Source of the DNA: a virus
Taxonomy: Duplodnaviria > Caudoviricetes
Virus record (IMG/VR): IMGVR_UViG_3300017911_001490
Location: 1 to 64,000 of that record
Length of the DNA stretch: 64,000 nt
Reading direction: 5' to 3' (one strand)
Shown here: positions 11,930-21,528 of the stretch, piece after piece
Layout: each line of letters begins with the position of its first letter
Numbering within the stretch: position 1 is the stretch's first letter
Translations under genes and position numbers: made by a program
The notes under the pieces: generated by a model
Databases searched by the model: none
What the model saw: the letters and a program-made list of their open reading frames with translations, nothing else
Told to the model about the DNA's origin: nothing

Positions 11930-12748
11930 TTACCTCCTAACTATTATGTCATAGTTGCCTATAACGGGTTTCATTTTGAAGTGTTGCAAACCACCAGGGC
12001 GAAAGTATGTGTAGTCTTGACCTACTATATACTTCTTCTCCCACTTCATGTAACCTGCCTCTGGGAACTTCATTCCCTCTGCGGATAACTTTTCAAGTAG
12101 GGCGATCATTTCATCCGTACCAATGGGTTCCTTCAATCGTGCCTGCCTTATGTCGTAGACAGTTTCATGCCCACCATGCCATTGATATTCAGCCATTCGT
12201 TTCGCATCCATTCGATCCTTAGCTTCGAGCTTCACTGAATCCACTACCTGCTTCCTACCTCTCTTACTCTTATCTACTAGATCGACTGTGTACTTCTTGG
12301 AATCTGGCTTTATCTCTCGTAGACCAAGGTAGACATGATCCATCATGCTCCCGCGAAACTTATAGGGAACACGGGGAAACGCATCATAGTATATACACCT
12401 CTCAATCGCTCGGCTCTGATGTAGGTCACGGATTCGTATGTCTATATGTTCCCATGTCTCAGGCTTCTTAGCTTTGTACATCTCCTCAGCCGACCACTTG
12501 GCACAGAAAACATGACTGAATGCGAATCCATTGTGAGTAGCGTATGCTTTCTCCTCATTGTCATCACTAATAGCATAAGGACGCAGGGCGGTGGGATGAC
12601 CACAATGATCTACCCGCCAACCCGTATACTTAGCCCGATCATACAGAAAGTAGGATGGCATATCTCCGTCTGTCTTTTCCCATCGAAGACCGGGGGCGAC
12701 ACACGACTCTTCATCTAACTGTAAACTGAGGTCTAGTTGGTTAGGCAT
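11930..12748 (-). CDS. Hypothetical protein
   Basis: Probable start MPNQLD at 12748 overlaps the helicase stop. Confidence 0.65.
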   Translation of the reverse strand: MPNQLDLSLQLDEESCVAPGLRWEKTDGDMPSYFLYDRAKYTGWRVDHCGHPTALRPYAISDDNEEKAYATHNGFAFSHVFCAKWSAEEMYKAKKPETWEHIDIRIRDLHQSRAIERCIYYDAFPRVPYKFRGSMMDHVYLGLREIKPDSKKYTVDLVDKSKRGRKQVVDSVKLEAKDRMDAKRMAEYQWHGGHETVYDIRQARLKEPIGTDEMIALLEKLSAEGMKFPEAGYMKWEKKYIVGQDYTYFRPGGLQHFKMKPVIGNYDIIVRR

Positions 12749-15389
12749 AGTCTTCCATTTCCTCGAGCAATTCATTGACTGCGTCCTTGTCATCATCGTT
12801 AATGCCAAGCTCCTCACCGCGCGTGATAGTCAATAGTCTGTCTTTCAGGTTAGACCAACCTGCCTCAACCTCCTGCTCGGTCTCCTCCGTATCCAGGTTT
12901 AAGTTGTCATACCCAAGAACATGCTCCGCAAGGATAGTATCCTTATCTACCGTCATGACATCTTTCTCCACACGCTCACCACGCAGGGCAATCGTTGCCG
13001 CATCCTCCTTCATGCCTAGCTTGTCGAACATCAAGTCCTCGACACTATTTTTGTGTAGCATGACATATACATTGATGTCCCTCTCGGAGTTAACACGATA
13101 CACACGACCCAATGCCTGATTGAACACACCATATGACCACTCGAGTGAACCGATGATTAGGTTACGACACTGAGCGAAGGACAAAGCCTGAGCGCACTTG
13201 ATCGACATGAGCAGAACCTTTGCCTTACCGACAATGAAGTCATTCGCTTCCTTTGCCTTATCCTCAATGTCACCATTGATTACGCATGTACTAATCTTCG
13301 CATCCGCAAGCCTTGCTTCCAACTCATCCAACTGATCCCTGCGGGCTGCAACCATAAGAACCTGTTCACCTTGACTGATGTGCTTGTATGCTGTCTCAAG
13401 CATAGCGGCAATCTTTGGAGTGTAGTTACTACTGGCAAAGACATTATGCTTTGCAGTCGCTGGGTTGGCACAGGCACTACGAAGGATATTCAGTTGAATA
13501 CCATACCTAAACTTAGGGTCTTTACATACAACATTACCTGGATCCATGTAGTGGGCATAGTTCTTGCGTTGCTGTTCGGTCATTGGAACCTGTACCTTCA
13601 TGACATTACACTTAGGGAGATTGGGGTTACATTGCTCCTTGCTGATGAACGCAACCTTACCACGCAGTATCTTGAGTAACTTCTCAGGCTGAGATATACG
13701 AGGAGAACGCTTCCTGCAACTAGGACCAATCCCACCATTGTCTGCATTCATGGCGGCTTGAGTTAGATCAATCTCCGCAGTCATGAACTCACCCTTGAAT
13801 CCATTCCTACCATCAATCTCACTTGTCCGATAGGGCCAAAAGGCATTGGACTTATCTCCGTGATACCAGTTAGGCACACTCAACCAACCCATTAGGGAGA
13901 AGATATTGAATACCATATTTGGTATTGGGGTAGCAGTCAGTGCAAACTTGTACTTGGGTTGCAAGCGAATGAAATTCTTACTGATCTGAGCGTCCAAGTT
14001 ACACACCGCATGTGCCTCGTCCATGATTACCATATCCCAAGTATCTAGTCCCATCTCGGTCGCTAGGCATGGCTTAGCAATACAACGGATACTGTGTGTC
14101 TCTCCTGTCTGTTGTCCCAGTCGCTGAACTTGCTTAAGTTCATCAGTGCCTACACCCTGGCAATAGTTGGTTGTGTCTCGATTACCAAGTGAGTCCTCAA
14201 GTGGTGGTAACTTATGACCAAGTCTCTTCATCTCCTCGCGGAACTTCTTCTCAGGATCAGGAGATGGTTCACCTTTCTTGCTGACATACCAAGACTTTGG
14301 CATGTGTTCAAACCCCGAGTAGAATAAGGCATGGTCGTATGTAATGAACACACCGTATGGTAACTGCCCACCATTCTCCATCTTCAGACTTATGTAATCC
14401 TCACGGGAGAATATCCTGTGGACAGGTACAGTTGGAGCAAACTTGGCAAACTCACGAATCCATTGTGCTTGCATCTCATTGTCCTTTGACTTGACCGTAC
14501 CCTTCGGGGCACAGATCAGAGTGCGACCGGGTTGCTTAAGCATGGTTAGTGCAATAGCGATGAGCGTCTTACCGCACCCCGTCTCGGCAGAGATGAGAGC
14601 AGAATCAGCACAGGATGCCTGAGCGATATACTTCATCTGACCAGGATAGAAACTAAACTTGCCTGCCGATTCCATGAACCGTAGCACAGACATTGCTTGA
14701 TCGAATTTATCCTTGTTCTCAGCGGCCAAGGTTGGGATCTCCGGTTTCTTGAAGTACTCCCATATCCTTTCTGCTGACATCTCGTTATTGAGCGTTGGAT
14801 GCTCACGGAATCGTAGTGTCTGTTTCTCGATTATCTTCTGCCCATTCCTCTTGGTTCGGGGAAACTCACGATCATCTTGGAACTCCAAGGCATAATCATG
14901 ACCGTCGAACTGCATCTCATGGACACGAGAGCCGAGTCCGTCAGCTTCTGAGTAGGTGTACTTGGTCTTAGTGAACGATTCCTTGTACTGCATCTTCTTA
15001 GATACAAACTCATACTTCTTTCCTGCTGTTAGTTCGAGACCACAGAAGTCATCATCCGCAGGGATGAATACATCCTTTATGCAGGTCAGTTGCTTGACCT
15101 CCTCCACATAACCGAACAACTCGTATTCAGTTGGTTCAGTAAGAGGTCGTGCAACCTTCGCACCTGATTCCAGTGCGATACTGATTCGTTCTCTTGCATC
15201 ATCGGTAATCAAACACTTTGGACTTTTGAAGAGACGCATTAGTCTCCTGTAGTCCGTCAATGATATGACAAGAGAGATTGGTGTTCTTCCCGCTACCAAC
15301 TGCAGATCCATCTGCAATTCATACGGGGCGGTATTTGGATATGTCCGAAGTCTACCGTCGGACGTTAGTTCCACATCATAGAGAGCCAT
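12741..15389 (-). CDS. SNF2-family (SF2) helicase/translocase with N-terminal extension
   Basis: AETGCGKT Walker A, IMDEAH Walker B, LTATP, QALGRVYR motif VI. Confidence 0.9.
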   Translation of the reverse strand: MALYDVELTSDGRLRTYPNTAPYELQMDLQLVAGRTPISLVISLTDYRRLMRLFKSPKCLITDDARERISIALESGAKVARPLTEPTEYELFGYVEEVKQLTCIKDVFIPADDDFCGLELTAGKKYEFVSKKMQYKESFTKTKYTYSEADGLGSRVHEMQFDGHDYALEFQDDREFPRTKRNGQKIIEKQTLRFREHPTLNNEMSAERIWEYFKKPEIPTLAAENKDKFDQAMSVLRFMESAGKFSFYPGQMKYIAQASCADSALISAETGCGKTLIAIALTMLKQPGRTLICAPKGTVKSKDNEMQAQWIREFAKFAPTVPVHRIFSREDYISLKMENGGQLPYGVFITYDHALFYSGFEHMPKSWYVSKKGEPSPDPEKKFREEMKRLGHKLPPLEDSLGNRDTTNYCQGVGTDELKQVQRLGQQTGETHSIRCIAKPCLATEMGLDTWDMVIMDEAHAVCNLDAQISKNFIRLQPKYKFALTATPIPNMVFNIFSLMGWLSVPNWYHGDKSNAFWPYRTSEIDGRNGFKGEFMTAEIDLTQAAMNADNGGIGPSCRKRSPRISQPEKLLKILRGKVAFISKEQCNPNLPKCNVMKVQVPMTEQQRKNYAHYMDPGNVVCKDPKFRYGIQLNILRSACANPATAKHNVFASSNYTPKIAAMLETAYKHISQGEQVLMVAARRDQLDELEARLADAKISTCVINGDIEDKAKEANDFIVGKAKVLLMSIKCAQALSFAQCRNLIIGSLEWSYGVFNQALGRVYRVNSERDINVYVMLHKNSVEDLMFDKLGMKEDAATIALRGERVEKDVMTVDKDTILAEHVLGYDNLNLDTEETEQEVEAGWSNLKDRLLTITRGEELGINDDDKDAVNELLEEMEDYA

Positions 15390-16181: not shown

Positions 16182-16444
16182 TTTTGATTTGGTGATTTAA
16201 TTCCTCTTTCTTTGAATTTCTGTTGTAGAGCAGGTCTATATTCTACGGCGGTCTCATGTACTGGTAGGTTGTAGTCAGTTGATCTGATTACACGGGACAC
16301 ATTGGCAGACCATGTATCGTCCGCTTTACATAGAGCCTCGTATCTCCTATGTGCATCCGGCAGATGCTCGAATACTTCGTATTGATCGCGGAACCGATCA
16401 GGACTCAGCATCTTTACATAAGTGACCAAGAATGTGTTCTCCAT
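16178..16444 (-). CDS. Hypothetical protein
   Basis: Coupled co-directional ORF. Confidence 0.55.
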   Translation of the reverse strand: MENTFLVTYVKMLSPDRFRDQYEVFEHLPDAHRRYEALCKADDTWSANVSRVIRSTDYNLPVHETAVEYRPALQQKFKERGIKSPNQK

Positions 16445-16803
16445 TATATTCTCCTTCCATTTATTAGTGTTTGAGCCACCTTTCTTTTAGTTTTCTCTCT
16501 CCACTTCTTCACTCTTTCTTGTGACCTCTTGTTCTTTTCCTTTTTTTCCTGTTCGGTAAGTACGCCATTGTGCCACACTCTGACCATCTGATTTGAGTAG
16601 TTCGTTCCTCTTGGGGTGGTCTGTCGCAGAACAGGATGCACACCATGATTCCTCATATAATTCTGTAGCTTGACGCCTTCATCATACGAGAGATGTACAG
16701 AGTCACCCTTCTTCATTGCAGACAAGACCTCACTCCACCTGGAAGAATTATTACGCAAGGGAGGTATTGGTATTCCTCTTTCTATAATTACAGTGGTGTT
16801 CAT
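16444..16803 (-). CDS. Hypothetical protein, possibly DNA-binding
   Basis: IERGIPIP...MKKGDSV N-terminal pattern; basic C-terminus. Confidence 0.55.
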   Translation of the reverse strand: MNTTVIIERGIPIPPLRNNSSRWSEVLSAMKKGDSVHLSYDEGVKLQNYMRNHGVHPVLRQTTPRGTNYSNQMVRVWHNGVLTEQEKKEKNKRSQERVKKWREKTKRKVAQTLINGRRI

Positions 16804-17426
16804 TTACTGAATGCTATGCACGCAGGTAGTATGCGTTCCAGTTGCCTGTCCTGTTCAATGGTTAGCTTGGTGCGATCCTTATGGAAGTCTGTCTTTGGCT
16901 TATTGCCGAATTTCCAGACAGCCACATCTGTACCACATACCTCATTGATCTGCTCGAGGAGTCCATCCACCTCATCTTGCTTGTCAGCAGGGACGAGAGA
17001 GAAGTCCACGACACAGGATGTTGTCTCCGTGACTGAGTTCTTGACAAATGCTTCACCTGTTATGGCAACGATCCGTTCCCTGGTCTTGTCGTCGAACTCA
17101 CCATATCCTCCCTCCTTGACCTGCACGGACATTTGATGAGGCACACCATAAGTCTGACCCTTGAAGCGAAACATCTTTGGTCTGTCTGCCGCTCGGTTAT
17201 TGAGTACCATTTCCCGAACAACACGATGAATTACTCGGGACTTATCAATGAGTTCCTTACCTTCAGCCGCTTTCAGTTTGCCCATGTAGTTATCATTGAG
17301 GGCTTGTTGTATTGTTGTGTCAGAAGAACTGCTGGCATCAATAACTGTTACCCTGTCCCCTGACGATGTTTTTGGTGGAGGAGCAGATTGAGCCTGCTTC
17401 TTCCTTCTTTCTTCTAAACGAGACAT
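16800..17426 (-). CDS. Hypothetical protein downstream of PRTRC ThiF
   Basis: 208-aa ORF 4 nt after the ThiF stop. Confidence 0.65.
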   Translation of the reverse strand: MSRLEERRKKQAQSAPPPKTSSGDRVTVIDASSSSDTTIQQALNDNYMGKLKAAEGKELIDKSRVIHRVVREMVLNNRAADRPKMFRFKGQTYGVPHQMSVQVKEGGYGEFDDKTRERIVAITGEAFVKNSVTETTSCVVDFSLVPADKQDEVDGLLEQINEVCGTDVAVWKFGNKPKTDFHKDRTKLTIEQDRQLERILPACIAFSK

Positions 17427-17430
17427 ATTT

Positions 17431-18105
17431 CTATGTCCTTTCTATGTTTATGGGGTTACATATACCCTTTGATATATCAAAGAATACACCCCGTTTTGTT
17501 ATTTGTTTGAAGCGCGTCATCTCCCACACCATGTGGCATGCTTGAATAGCAACTTCATTGTTGATGAAAAGGTCTTGGCGAGCTAGGTGATCCGTGCAGG
17601 TAGGCACATCATCTTCCTCCTCCTCGCCATCCCATAACTGAGGGTTCTCCTCGTATGGGTTAGGTAGTTCACCCTTGAACTGACCAAGCAATACTTGACC
17701 TGATGTCCGAGCATTACCGCAATCCATAAGGTACGCACCCTCTCGATACCATGACTTGGCAATAGCTTTGCGTGATGCCTTGGTATCCACACAAGATATA
17801 ACAAGATCGAACTGACCCGATGAGGGTGCTTTAGACTCACGATGTGACCAATTCAGATGGAAGTAATCATTCACCCTCCTGGTCAACACCTTTGCCTTAT
17901 TCTGTCCGACATCACACGGGAAGAATGCCTGTCTACCCACATTGTAGTGGGATACTACATCAGGATCGAAGGCAGTAACATATATCTTACCATGGTTAAG
18001 TCTAACCAACTCGTTGTTTATCTTTGCTAAACCATTGATGACATGGCTACCTGTGCCACCACAACCATACACACCAATGTTTCTTATTGTTTTATTCCGT
18101 ATCAT
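17431..18105 (-). CDS. PRTRC-system ThiF-family protein (E1-like)
   Basis: GCGGTGS loop, DPDVVSHYNVGRQ, NKAKVL, SCVD...R, DCGN...GQV, PTC...RQDLFIN (catalytic-Cys region). Confidence 0.9.
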   Translation of the reverse strand: MIRNKTIRNIGVYGCGGTGSHVINGLAKINNELVRLNHGKIYVTAFDPDVVSHYNVGRQAFFPCDVGQNKAKVLTRRVNDYFHLNWSHRESKAPSSGQFDLVISCVDTKASRKAIAKSWYREGAYLMDCGNARTSGQVLLGQFKGELPNPYEENPQLWDGEEEEDDVPTCTDHLARQDLFINNEVAIQACHMVWEMTRFKQITKRGVFFDISKGICNPINIERT

Positions 18106-18700
18106 CTAGCACCTCCCTTAGTGTTATTTCTGTTTGTTTTAGTCGGTTACGAGGAGTTGGCATATAGTTGAATGCTGACATATAGAATGCCTCTTCATAC
18201 TCTAACCAACCCTTGCGCTTGGGGCAGTAGGTGACATCAAGGTCAGGCAATGCTGTCCTGACACCACAATGTCCCATCAGTCCATTAGCTGAGTGAACAT
18301 CAGTCCCCCTGTATGGATAGTCATACACTTTACTGTCCTCTTCGGGTAGGAAGTTAGGATCATTCCTGTTCACCACCACCACATGAAGGTTCTGCTTGCG
18401 GAGAATAAACACCAAACCCGGATGCGAGTACATGCGTCTATCTGCGCGTGATAGTATGATCTTCCTTCTGCATGGCTTCTTGTACCATATAATGCACTGA
18501 TTCTTCTGATACCATAGGACATTAGGTAGAACTACTGGTTGAATCATTCGCCCATTGTTAGTAATAGCATCAAAGCAGGCAGGCGTGAGTGTCCGTGGGT
18601 TCACCCAATCTCCATCTGTGTTCTTGTCATAGGCAACGGCAAAGGTTTCCCTGTCGTCACCATAGATCATTATACTGTGTTTAGCTTCAATCGTTTGCAT
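18092..18700 (-). CDS. PRTRC-system protein B (prokaryotic E2-like)
   Basis: Position directly before ThiF; PNVLW...IIWYKKPCRR...HPGLVF...YP...G..C...F..SAF pattern. Confidence 0.7.
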   Translation of the reverse strand: MQTIEAKHSIMIYGDDRETFAVAYDKNTDGDWVNPRTLTPACFDAITNNGRMIQPVVLPNVLWYQKNQCIIWYKKPCRRKIILSRADRRMYSHPGLVFILRKQNLHVVVVNRNDPNFLPEEDSKVYDYPYRGTDVHSANGLMGHCGVRTALPDLDVTYCPKRKGWLEYEEAFYMSAFNYMPTPRNRLKQTEITLREVLDDTE

Positions 18701-19679
18701 AAGATATATATTTTAGTAGGTCATAGAATGGACGGAACAGATAGATAACATGCTCCTGTGCCTCTCTAGTGTGTAGTGCGTAGCACAAGCTAGTGACTTG
18801 CGCTCCTGTTTGTGTGTAATGAGCAGTCATATCCTCAGTGAGCATCCAAGATGGATCCCTTGGTCCACCCTGATCCGGTGGCCCCGATGTTAACTCCTCC
18901 CTTCGTATCCTCTCATGATCGGGACCATAGTCAGACATATGATGCAGGAACCTGGGGGCGTATCTGCCATACCATGGCTCCAAGCCATACCAAGTACATA
19001 TCAACGCAGGGAATAAAAAGAATTCTTCATTAGATATATCAATAAACTCATACTGCTTGAGTTCATCAATGGCATCCTCGCATTCCCGTATCAGTCTGCA
19101 TAGAATAGGTAATTCTGTTGGCTGGGTATGATTATCCTCCGCATTCGCCTTCACCCATTCCGGGCAGAACCCATAGTTGTGACCCTTCTTCTTCTTCCTC
19201 TCTACCTCGTTGTAGTCCACCCGTGGATTAGCATCAATGCAATCTTCGGTGAGGAACTCAATAGACCCATGAGCTTCCCAGTTGATAAGATCGGGAGTCA
19301 GTATATGTATCGGAGAGTGGGATAGTAAGTGTATCAAGTAATTGCCTATACTATACCTCTTGTGCAACATACTGAGGCGTGGTCCGACTGCATATCGTTG
19401 AACATCCTCGGGCTGATTGATGATTGGAATGAGCATGTCGTTCCACGGGTAGATATGTATCTCGTGCTTGAGGTCAGATATACTATGCAGTAGATCAGTG
19501 AGATAATCATCCTTACATTCATCTTGGTATGTCTTATATACTTTTCCTGTTCTTGTTATGTATTGAGGTAAGCTATGTGGTGTCTCTAAAAAAGGGGAGG
19601 CACGGTATGCGAGGGGAGTTCCCCCCGCATCCGAACATCCGTGATTGCTTGTTTTAGTTGGAACGAGTATCTCGACCAT
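18687..19679 (-). CDS. Probable PRTRC-system protein F
   Basis: Position between C and B and size (330 aa); sequence motifs not confirmed. Confidence 0.5.
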   Translation of the reverse strand: MVEILVPTKTSNHGCSDAGGTPLAYRASPFLETPHSLPQYITRTGKVYKTYQDECKDDYLTDLLHSISDLKHEIHIYPWNDMLIPIINQPEDVQRYAVGPRLSMLHKRYSIGNYLIHLLSHSPIHILTPDLINWEAHGSIEFLTEDCIDANPRVDYNEVERKKKKGHNYGFCPEWVKANAEDNHTQPTELPILCRLIRECEDAIDELKQYEFIDISNEEFFLFPALICTWYGLEPWYGRYAPRFLHHMSDYGPDHERIRREELTSGPPDQGGPRDPSWMLTEDMTAHYTQTGAQVTSLCYALHTREAQEHVIYLFRPFYDLLKYISYAND

Positions 19680-19688
19680 TGTCCGTAG

Positions 19689-19928
19689 TTATCCTTTAGT
19701 ACCGTATTTCCCTGAGAATTGGTATCGTTCTGTTCCGCCACCTTTTCCTTCGAGTTTGTACTTTTCTTTACCTTTTTCATATATTGGTCCGGCTACCTCC
19801 CCGTTCGTTAATGATGGATATACACGCGCATACATTTGCATTACCTCCTCAGGCTTCAGGTGATGACCGAGATCTTCAAGCACCCGATCACCAAAGATGA
19901 ACTCACGCTTTGTTTTCTTCAGGCTCAT
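19689..19928 (-). CDS. PRTRC-system protein C (ubiquitin-like)
   Basis: REF.F....L.D.....PEEV...YA..YP.L...V.GP...GTKG-COOH pattern. Confidence 0.88.
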   Translation of the reverse strand: MSLKKTKREFIFGDRVLEDLGHHLKPEEVMQMYARVYPSLTNGEVAGPIYEKGKEKYKLEGKGGGTERYQFSGKYGTKG

Positions 19929-20473
19929 AGGTCATCCAAGGAGAGTGCTTTCTCCTCTGCTTTCTCCACTGCTGATTTGAGTTCTTTGGTTTCCTCCTTC
20001 GGTGGCTCCTCCTTCGGTTCCTCCTTTGCTAGTCGATCAGGCTCATCATCAAGATTCAAGTCCTGTTGGTCAGCACTCTCGGCTTGCTTCTTGCGCAGTT
20101 CCTCACGCTGTTCAGCTTGAGTCTTCTTCTTCCTGGTTGTTGTGGTCTTGCCCGCAGGCTTCTTGGCTGCCACCTTCTTCTGCTTTGAAGCAACTGCACC
20201 CTTAAGTTTTTTCTCCAACTCAGTCAGGTCAGTTGTGGCGGCAACCATTGGGTCTCTGTAATCATTTAAGTCCTTAGTGAACTCCTGATTAGAGAAGTTG
20301 GATAGGTCATAGCACTTGGTCATAGCACCTTCTAGTACCTTACGATCCTCATCCGGTAGTTTGATGTCTTCCTTTAGTGTAGGAATGACAACTACATGTA
20401 ATAGTTCCCCGTCCAACTGGAGATCTATATTTAGTCTGTGTGTTTTTAGCAGTGGTATGTATTCAGTGATCAC
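19925..20473 (-). CDS. PRTRC-system protein E
   Basis: Beta-rich N-terminus (LNIDLQLDGELLHVVVIP) and K/A/E-rich tail; canonical position before C. Confidence 0.7.
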   Translation of the reverse strand: MITEYIPLLKTHRLNIDLQLDGELLHVVVIPTLKEDIKLPDEDRKVLEGAMTKCYDLSNFSNQEFTKDLNDYRDPMVAATTDLTELEKKLKGAVASKQKKVAAKKPAGKTTTTRKKKTQAEQREELRKKQAESADQQDLNLDDEPDRLAKEEPKEEPPKEETKELKSAVEKAEEKALSLDDL

Positions 20474-20871
20474 TGTATTTTCCTTTCTCTGTGTGTTTTA
20501 GTGTAGACCTTGCGAATGTCTTCCTCTTTGAATCCATCCCCGTAGTCTTTTAATTTGTCTACCGTGTCGTCTATGCAACCCGTGTAGTATGCTTCATGGT
20601 TTTCTAGTTCGCGCAGTATGATCTGCTCGGCAGTATGATCCTTCTTGTCCTGGGCAATGCCTTCATCAATGATGTTACTGATACCATCTATTAGTTCTTT
20701 GCTCTTGTCCTTGGGTACAATCATACCTGCACCAAGATGTGAATACTTCACACCCTCGACAGCATGATCTTTGAACTGGAACTTATTGAATGCATAGAAA
20801 GCACCGAGGCGCTTCATCAATGCGTCATGCTTATCCTCAATATAATCAGACAGGTATTTTAATCCCTCCAT
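20470..20871 (-). CDS. Hypothetical phage protein
   Basis: Coupled ORF, GAFYAFN...QF...GAG. Confidence 0.65.
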   Translation of the reverse strand: MEGLKYLSDYIEDKHDALMKRLGAFYAFNKFQFKDHAVEGVKYSHLGAGMIVPKDKSKELIDGISNIIDEGIAQDKKDHTAEQIILRELENHEAYYTGCIDDTVDKLKDYGDGFKEEDIRKVYTKTHRERKIQ

Positions 20872-21302
20872 AATCTCATTTCCTCCGCTGTCTCAATCCT
20901 ATCGTGGATAGGAAAGGCACCAGGATACCTGATCCCTATCTTTGTGTAGACATAATCGCTCACTCTTGAGTCTCCCGAGTAACAGAAGTTACCCCCGAAC
21001 ATCACGCTACCTCGTTCTTCAGTGTCCATGGTTCTATCGTCCTCGATCCATTCATCCTTGAGTTCAGAATCCATACGCTTACGAGCGGGCACTACCTTAC
21101 AGTACTTGCTCACCTTATCGCATATCAATAAGACTGGGTAGTACTTGTCGCAGGGTTCGAAGGGACATTTAAATCCATGCACATCATGAGTAATATTCAC
21201 AATGCACACACCCTTGTATTTATATTTGGGACCACTGAACCCACCCTTCGTGGTGTCAGTGCCAAGGAAGCGATCTGTGTATATACTAGCTATAAGCCCC
21301 AT
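20859..21302 (-). CDS. Conserved-looking hypothetical protein
   Basis: MFGGNF..S.DSR...PIHDR.E pattern. Confidence 0.6.
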   Translation of the reverse strand: MGLIASIYTDRFLGTDTTKGGFSGPKYKYKGVCIVNITHDVHGFKCPFEPCDKYYPVLLICDKVSKYCKVVPARKRMDSELKDEWIEDDRTMDTEERGSVMFGGNFCYSGDSRVSDYVYTKIGIRYPGAFPIHDRIETAEEMRLWRD

Positions 21303-21528
21303 CGTAGCAATGCCTCACTCCTACACATTCAATTCTTGAAACCAGGTCTTCGCGACGCTCTCTAACAAGGTAATCCCTGTCGGTCTCGCATCGTACCATA
21401 CATGAGGTAAGTCCGAGTTCATCAATCGCAATGATCTTAGATACATTGAGTGTAAGAACCCTTGATTCCTCCTTACCCTTTGCTCCAGTATAGTGGTGCC
21501 TGATGGTTAATAACTGAGTGCCAGTCAT
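21286..21528 (-). CDS. Hypothetical protein
   Basis: Coupled ORF. Confidence 0.55.
   Translation of the reverse strand: MTGTQLLTIRHHYTGAKGKEESRVLTLNVSKIIAIDELGLTSCMVRCETDRDYLVRERREDLVSRIECVGVRHCYDGAYS

Follow-up and report, generated by a model that had tools for sequence, protein, structure and literature searches.

What would a tailed phage do with a set of ubiquitin-like conjugation genes, and can such a set work when no JAB-domain protease is encoded with it? The question is raised by a five-gene cassette of the PRTRC type on the minus strand of the IMG/VR virus record IMGVR_UViG_3300017911_001490 (Duplodnaviria; Caudoviricetes), of which we analysed the first 64 kb (hereafter, the window); the complete record is 80,597 bp long and has direct terminal repeats and an estimated completeness of 100%. 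A first-pass annotation of the window had read a tightly coupled E-C-F-B-ThiF run, comprising a ubiquitin-like protein (Ubl), an E1-like ThiF and an E2-like protein B and lacking both the JAB-domain protein A and ParB. Comparison of these sequences with their relatives leads us to conclude that the cassette is probably a compact, self-contained and working module for one-way Ubl conjugation, and that it is inherited and conserved in its phage lineage. Its genes, in the order of transcription, are:

19925..20473, minus strand: E, PRTRC_E-like protein of 182 aa (weak match to TIGR03741; iterated hidden Markov model)
19689..19928, minus strand: C, Ubl of 79 aa, ending in G76-T-K-G79 (Prok_Ub, PF14454)
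18687..19679, minus strand: F-position protein of 330 aa, mostly helical (named by position only)
18092..18700, minus strand: B, E2-like protein of 202 aa, with the motif MGHCG and the candidate catalytic Cys145 (Prok-E2_D, PF14460)
17431..18105, minus strand: ThiF-family E1 of 224 aa, with a GCGGTGS loop and a PTC motif containing Cys170 (TIGR03736)

The five open reading frames (ORFs) are coupled as the first-pass annotation had described, with a 4-nt overlap between E and C, a 9-nt gap between C and F, and 14-nt overlaps at both the F/B and B/ThiF junctions, and hidden Markov models (HMMs) confirm the identity of ThiF, B and C. ThiF scores 203.1 bits on TIGR03736 (202.8 in the genome search), above the cut-off of 144.75. 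The Ubl reaches 49.6 bits on Prok_Ub PF14454 (gathering threshold 25) and 38.4 bits on TIGR03738 (cut-off 45.95), B 39.4 bits on Prok-E2_D PF14460 (gathering threshold 25) and 34.8 bits on TIGR03737 (cut-off 131.45), and E 12.4 bits on TIGR03741 (E = 0.008; N-terminus only; cut-off 37.95). Assignment to PRTRC by the TIGRFAM models consequently stands for ThiF, with B, C and E below their cut-offs and the F, A and ParB models without any match. The affiliation of the weaker members comes from iterated HMM searches of the ORF sets of 80 viral loci and two annotated phage loci, seeded with the proteins of this phage and of Ralstonia phage Dina: the E, C, B and ThiF families obtained from both seeds converge completely, and the search started from E recovers every one of the 46 E proteins that the RefSeq-annotated E of Dina yields, with which it has an N-terminal pattern in common. 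On this pattern, E appears to be a real but weak PRTRC_E homologue. Scanning IMG/VR with a single protein returned nothing; the relatives were found with an alignment as query.

The residues on which conjugation would depend are strongly conserved. In 72 non-redundant ThiF homologues, Arg58, Asp107 and Cys170 are each present in 100%, and the GCGGTGS loop is invariant save for Thr18, at 99%. The nearest solved structures are those of the SUMO E1 UBA2, ThiF, UBA3 and Cap2; in the profile alignment to UBA2, the aligned adenylation core ends a few residues before Cys170, which places this residue where we take E1 catalytic cysteines to lie. The cysteine of B is present in all homologues by inspection, though MAFFT offsets it, and is aligned with that of Dina B by BLASTP (E = 2e-6). 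Its surroundings have changed: the His that follows the Cys is kept in 34 of 39 other PRTRC-proper B proteins and is Tyr, Gln, Lys or Met in the clade of this phage, where Asp134 and His136, nine residues ahead of Cys145, are invariant. Of 50 non-redundant Ubl homologues, all have the terminal Gly79 and 94% have Lys78. The GTKG end, the nucleotide loop, the PTC cysteine and the GHCG cysteine, all pointed out in the first reading, are thus upheld by the ORFs and by the homologue alignments. The last strand of the Ubl (residues 53-76; window 19689-19772, minus strand) is tandemly duplicated (GKEKYKLEGKGG / GTERYQFSGKYG), which creates an internal KGGG. This duplication occurs only in this phage and in the related loci L006 and L008-L010; L007, L011-L013, L016 and the Bacteroidota Ubls do not have it, and the terminal GxKG is present in all.

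The cassette has no JAB protein and no ParB, and this holds for the whole 80,597-bp genome. Neither the Prok-JAB, PRTRC_A, RadC and JAB/MPN models (PF14464, TIGR03735, PF04002 and PF01398) nor those for PRTRC_parB and ParB_N (TIGR03734 and PF02195) found anything in the complete genome, nor did a local HMM built from 50 diverse cassette JAB proteins; the canonical site leaves no room for protein A, since B and ThiF overlap by 14 nt. The single JAMM-type motif match of a scan, in the ORF at 70864-72519, has a non-canonical 12-residue spacing and was taken as chance. A weak Prok-JAB match in the complete related phage genome G002 was rejected as a hidden PRTRC_A because it belongs to a RadC-family ORF (HNHPSG motif), absent from the genome studied here. 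In two relatives, such RadC-family JAB-fold ORFs (HNHPSG...PS..D) are located between 0.7 and 3.3 kb downstream of ThiF (L016:5467-5961 and L006:10641-11090, the latter equal to L085:9900-10349), and another is found 9 kb from ThiF in an unrelated 80-kb phage (L086:5324-5788).

The presence or absence of protein A goes together with the way in which the Ubl ends. In JAB-less cassettes, 33 of 33 non-redundant Ubls stop at the Gly of a (G/A)-x-(K/L/N)-G motif, as against none of 21 in JAB-containing PRTRC-proper cassettes, where a tail of ~60 residues follows an internal GRKG; both counts are inflated by shared ancestry and do not represent independent events. Such a pattern is to be expected where protein A matures a pro-Ubl and where selection has maintained a conjugation-competent tag in the JAB-less systems, and it speaks against reading the cassette as a remnant in decay. 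A working conjugation system that does not depend on processing would predict it. The link between JAB loss and a free terminal Gly is new here and provides the first comparative argument that protein A is the pro-Ubl processing enzyme; by the same token, it suggests that JAB-less systems are still active and probably irreversible.

A simple scheme would account for these features. The ThiF-family E1 would adenylate Gly79 of the Ubl and then take the Ubl as a thioester on Cys170, from where it would pass to Cys145 of the E2-like B and finally to lysines of one or more targets. As the Ubl is made with Gly as its last residue, no processing peptidase would be needed; as no deconjugase is encoded, tagging could be undone only by a non-JAB or host protease and would otherwise be one-way. 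The fast-evolving E and F-position proteins would most likely be the specificity or adaptor part of the system, its substrate, or both. Because the layout is common to the cassettes of Bacteroidota, one of which lies beside conjugative-transposon genes, we favour a mobile-element function that would serve establishment in a newly entered cell.

The two putative specificity proteins, and B with them, change faster than ThiF and C. Mean protein identity within the phage clade is 53% for ThiF and 48% for C, as against 31% for both B and E and 29% for F, which also has the lowest identity in the two closest clade pairs; the enzymatic core and the tag are thus conserved, whereas B, E and F evolve fast. 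In its AlphaFold2 (AF2) model (predicted local distance difference test, pLDDT, of 72, and >89 over residues 1-80), E has a small, confidently modelled alpha/beta head (1-60), a long helix of ~40 residues (62-103) and a disordered tail rich in Lys and Glu, and a Foldseek search of this model against the PDB gave nothing below E = 0.1. In one viral contig (IMGVR_UViG_3300014872_000006, L051:3198-4814), a 538-aa ORF combines a ParB/Spo0J N-terminal domain (TIGR00180, 107 bits) with PRTRC_E (460-528), a fusion that links E to ParB-type DNA-binding proteins.

The protein between C and B had been named as PRTRC F, an identification that did not survive comparison. It has no Pfam, NCBIfam, PHROG or PADLOC match and gives nothing against the PRTRC_F model TIGR03742 even at E = 10; its BLASTP comparison with Dina F is not significant, the two iterated-HMM families share no member, and their hhalign E-value is 0.04. 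Profile-profile comparison by hhalign of the three F-position families gave E-values of 0.04-0.5, likewise not significant. The label is accordingly positional, as neither a TIGR03742 match nor a profile-profile link supports it. Only 21 relatives of the F-position protein were found among 1.84 billion representatives. Its AF2 model, from an 18-sequence alignment (pLDDT 69.5), is mostly helical and does not look like a JAB domain, and searches with it by Foldseek against the PDB, by a wide VIA-align search (best Z 4.3) and in the ESM Atlas returned no usable match. A prediction of the complex of B, ThiF and F scored 0.08 for F as partner, with the mark at 0.32, a result that speaks neither for binding nor against it. 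Iyer et al. 2006 (PMC1779556; Table 1, row 6d), who described this operon class, called its helical protein "rapidly diverging". Twelve separate stretches of a 1318-aa metagenomic protein (P0132) match residues 187-235 of the F-position protein, making it a repeat protein of one F segment.

The cassette belongs to a phage, and to a lineage of phages. The genome has the gene set of a tailed phage (large terminase, tail-fibre and virion proteins, a DnaB-type helicase, a clamp-loader-like ATPase and an SNF2-type helicase) and also carries two tyrosine integrases, one of them adjoined by a tRNA-Thr. Genes run leftward from ~29.5 kb to 10 kb, and the cassette lies inside this DNA-replication block. 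Its cassette-bearing relatives are marine phages of ~73-81 kb, which have the terminase in common with this phage; ThiF proteins of the relatives were binned with metagenome-assembled genomes of Flavobacteriaceae and Opitutae. In G002, the cassette occupies the same site, flanked by the SNF2 helicase and clamp-loader genes; the order E, C, B, ThiF is kept in the other clade relatives, including the complete genomes G006, G009 and G012, and the F-type gene of the clade is present in all of them except L016 (G012). The contigs of one DNA run from a different study cover 16799-21471 at 90-99% identity. Mis-assembly, the possibility raised at first that the block is a stray plasmid fragment, is ruled out because related complete phage genomes carry this block at the matching position; the synteny with G002 and the independent DNA run agree. 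From the metatranscriptome libraries of two studies, three short contigs fall within 18584-19200, which hints at transcription weakly at best, and an uninformative scan for sigma-70 promoters and terminators over 12-30 kb found fewer sites than in shuffled sequence. The cassette DNA had no match in 50,697 GenBank phages, and 185,579 species genomes contained no close relative of the phage-clade ThiF (<=36% identity), in a pattern-limited scan that may miss prophages.

The first-pass annotation had taken the missing JAB and ParB as the mark of an unusual or new system. On the contrary, their absence is the rule in Bacteroidota elements and common in phages, with ~30 viral contigs from several lineages. 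In these loci, B abuts ThiF without an intervening A; they include the clade of this phage (L005-L013 and L016) and a second large group (L033-L051 and L055). By contrast, among the viral records with a related ThiF, the ~40-kb proviruses of Burkholderia/Ralstonia type all carry A between B and ThiF. Nine of 301 sampled Bacteroidota genomes have a PRTRC ThiF above the cut-off; the genome of Bacteroides thetaiotaomicron, run as a control, also scores above it (TIGR03736). PRTRC_A is present in none of the nine, and their ParB matches are short, of chromosomal type, below the cut-off and on other contigs only. The seven Bacteroidota loci examined all consist of E, C, a ~1.2-kb gene, B and ThiF, with a Ubl of 72-80 aa ending in GTKG, and the sole locus with scanned flanks adjoins TraJ/K/M/N conjugative-transposon genes. 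In the ThiF tree, PRTRC-proper forms a clade of 58 rows (Shimodaira-Hasegawa-like approximate likelihood ratio test, SH-aLRT, of 100), divided into a Deinococcus/Photobacterium group, the phage clade (10 rows, support 97), a Bacteroidota-plus-viral group and an A-containing group of proteobacterial type; we draw no direction of gain or loss from this tree, as it is a quick search with midpoint root. Phage-borne PRTRC has already been reported (PMC13366799; bioRxiv 10.64898/2026.10.01.756045). The JAB-less, ParB-less subtype is widespread in phages and Bacteroidota genomes, and the literature searched neither singles it out nor studies it.

Two genes adjoin the cassette directly:

16800..17426, minus strand: clade-specific accessory gene, 208 aa, beginning 4 nt past ThiF
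20470..20871, minus strand: DUF7659 gene (PF24692, 97.7 bits), a possible accessory with weak association

The 208-aa protein matched no family and nothing in the ESM Atlas. Its gene has homologues in 7 of 10 phage-clade loci at varying positions, after ThiF here and in L005, between E and C in L008-L010, and a few kb upstream in L006 and L007. The DUF7659 gene shares 4 nt with the start of E. Its family also adjoins the cassette in L050 (directly after ThiF) and L055 (upstream of E), two viral contigs outside the ThiF-tree clade of this phage, and lies 4.6 kb off in G002; in total, just 4 of the 34 records with a cassette contain it. Farther downstream, a contig of a close relative from an independent aquatic metagenome run skips 359 bases (16440-16798), and the 119-aa ORF at 16444-16803 is hence dispensable. 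The 295-aa ORF at 11930-12817 (minus strand) has only its C-terminal ~100 residues in common with a 147-aa ORF of G002 (L085:9056-10669), where the space upstream holds three separate small genes, one of them RadC-like; an N-terminal region or a gene block has been replaced between the two.

Whose proteins would be tagged is the point at which possible explanations part. Early in infection, the phage might mark host proteins, for instance those of defence or of host Ubl pathways, with a hypervariable F, B or both recognising the target, a counter-defence or host take-over role that we consider rather unlikely. The position of the cassette within a replication block of early type is consistent with it, as are the same layout beside Tra genes in the Bacteroidota locus with scanned flanks, the evolution of F, B and E at about twice the rate of ThiF and C, the lack of detectable homology between the F-position genes of different subclades, and a mutational hotspot linked with a DGR (diversity-generating retroelement) in the PRTRC protein B of a Phocaeicola prophage (bioRxiv 10.64898/2026.10.01.756045). 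Fast evolution, however, is also compatible with relaxed constraint or with co-evolution with the element's own proteins, and, with no match to an anti-defence family, this role is one that we purely infer. The element's own proteins could also be the target, in which case the Ubl would be placed on the Lys-rich tail of E or on ParB-type partners and would regulate replication, partition or establishment of the element itself, again a rather unlikely proposition in our view. The long helix and the disordered Lys/Glu-rich tail of E would suit such a substrate, the family has historically been tied to ParB through its TIGRFAM naming, one viral contig carries the ParB-PRTRC_E fusion, and the cassette sits between helicase and clamp-loader genes, a position kept in G002. 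Against this, there is no PRTRC-type ParB in this phage or in the Bacteroidota-type cassettes, the fusion is a single case, and modification of E would have to be assumed. The two leads diverge, as the hotspot in the prophage B points to target recognition and the ParB-E fusion to DNA partition.

Competing phages would be the victims if the cassette were accessory immunity cargo carried by phages and by integrative and conjugative elements (ICEs), acting in defence or superinfection exclusion through Bil-like tagging of the competitors' proteins. Mobile elements often carry such cargo, Bil-type E1/E2/Ubl operons are reported to defend against phages (bioRxiv 10.1101/2023.09.26.559546), and the phage may be temperate, given its two integrases and the tRNA-Thr beside one of them. 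Nevertheless, the cassette is a conserved syntenic module in a replication block rather than a variable island, its PADLOC match is a weak CBASS E1-E2 similarity of 13-20 bits, and no close prophage copy turned up in the pattern-limited scan of 185,579 species genomes, all of which makes us think this explanation decidedly unlikely. Highly improbable, finally, is that no conjugation takes place at all and that ThiF and C form an adenylation and sulfur-carrier pair (ThiS/ThiF or MoaD/MoeB-like) for nucleic-acid or cofactor modification, with B not an E2. ThiF is indeed distantly similar to ThiF and MoeB, but the ThiF/MoeB sulfur-carrier models give the cassette E1 only 16-35 bits, short of their cut-offs of 152-275; the cassettes always encode, in translational coupling, an E2-fold protein whose Cys is invariant, no partner of the sulfurtransferase or rhodanese type was seen among the scanned ORFs, and no DpdA gene was seen adjoining cassettes in ICEs.

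Several observations weigh against the one-way conjugation module that we prefer. The active site of B is rearranged and the protein could be functionally altered, since the His after the Cys is lost in the clade; B, C and E all score under their NCBIfam equivalog cut-offs, and the F-position protein has no domain that sequence or model searches would recognise. A non-JAB deconjugase may exist, for example within the giant polyvalent protein. The RNA-library contigs at 18584-19200 may be DNA carry-over, and the remainder of the stretch has no RNA cover, which tells neither for nor against transcription. We know of no target for any PRTRC system.

Even so qualified, the cassette defines a minimal subtype of five genes, without protease or ParB, found in a marine phage lineage, in other phage lineages and in Bacteroidota. 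PRTRC operons (class 6d) have been known from sequence since 2006 in plasmids, ICEs and phages, and we found no tested function for them in the literature. A bolder extension of our reading, which we rate as unlikely, is that JAB-less PRTRC systems are one-way tagging weapons used by phages and Bacteroidota ICEs on cell entry, in which the hypervariable F, together with B, would serve as a swappable receptor of E3 type that selects proteins of host defence or of competitors, and in which the mark would be irreversible through the pre-matured Ubl and the lack of a deconjugase. If true, this would be the first offensive, virus-encoded ubiquitin-like conjugation system in prokaryotes, and a host defence protein as target would make it a new class of counter-defence. 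Bacteroides thetaiotaomicron, on the strength of its ThiF score, and, for the JAB-containing type, Ralstonia phage Dina offer tractable models, and the residues to mutate are precisely identified (G79, C170 and C145).

Among known systems, one of the closest is that of Ralstonia phage Dina (NC_055026, gp02-gp07), whose RefSeq annotation gives the PRTRC genes in the order E-C-F-B-A-ThiF; PRTRC cassettes are likewise annotated in Burkholderia phages BgVeeders33 and AB2. These three represent operon class 6d (PMC1779556) and have the same E-C-F-B-...-ThiF order, a ThiF 35-41% identical to that of the phage studied here and, by BLASTP in the case of Dina-type C, a homologous Ubl (E = 2e-8). They differ in the JAB protein A between B and ThiF and in a Ubl of 129-167 aa with an extension of ~60 residues, whereas our phage lacks A, has a Ubl that ends at Gly, and has ThiF and B proteins ~40 aa shorter; its F has no detectable homology to theirs, and in its B the His behind the Cys is lost and Asp134/His136 have been gained ahead of the Cys. 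The Bacteroidota-type cassettes (for example, in Taibaiella koreensis) are identical in architecture and also without PRTRC_A or PRTRC-type ParB. Their F-position gene (~390-460 aa) similarly has no TIGR03742 match and is unrelated to that of the phage by profile comparison. They form a separate ThiF subclade, their B and E reach or exceed the NCBIfam cut-offs that the phage versions do not, and their carrier is an ICE instead of a phage. Bil (BilABCD), Bub and the Cap2/Cap3 module of the cyclic-oligonucleotide-based antiphage signalling system (CBASS) follow the same logic of E1, E2 and Ubl, and their operons include a JAB-type deubiquitinase. The E1 of the cassette is weakly similar to Cap2-type E1-E2, which the PADLOC models register as weak CBASS E1-E2 matches to ThiF (13-20 bits), whereas B, C, E and F match none of these models. 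Those systems constitute host defence islands, whereas the cassette described here is borne by a phage and carries the extra E and F genes.

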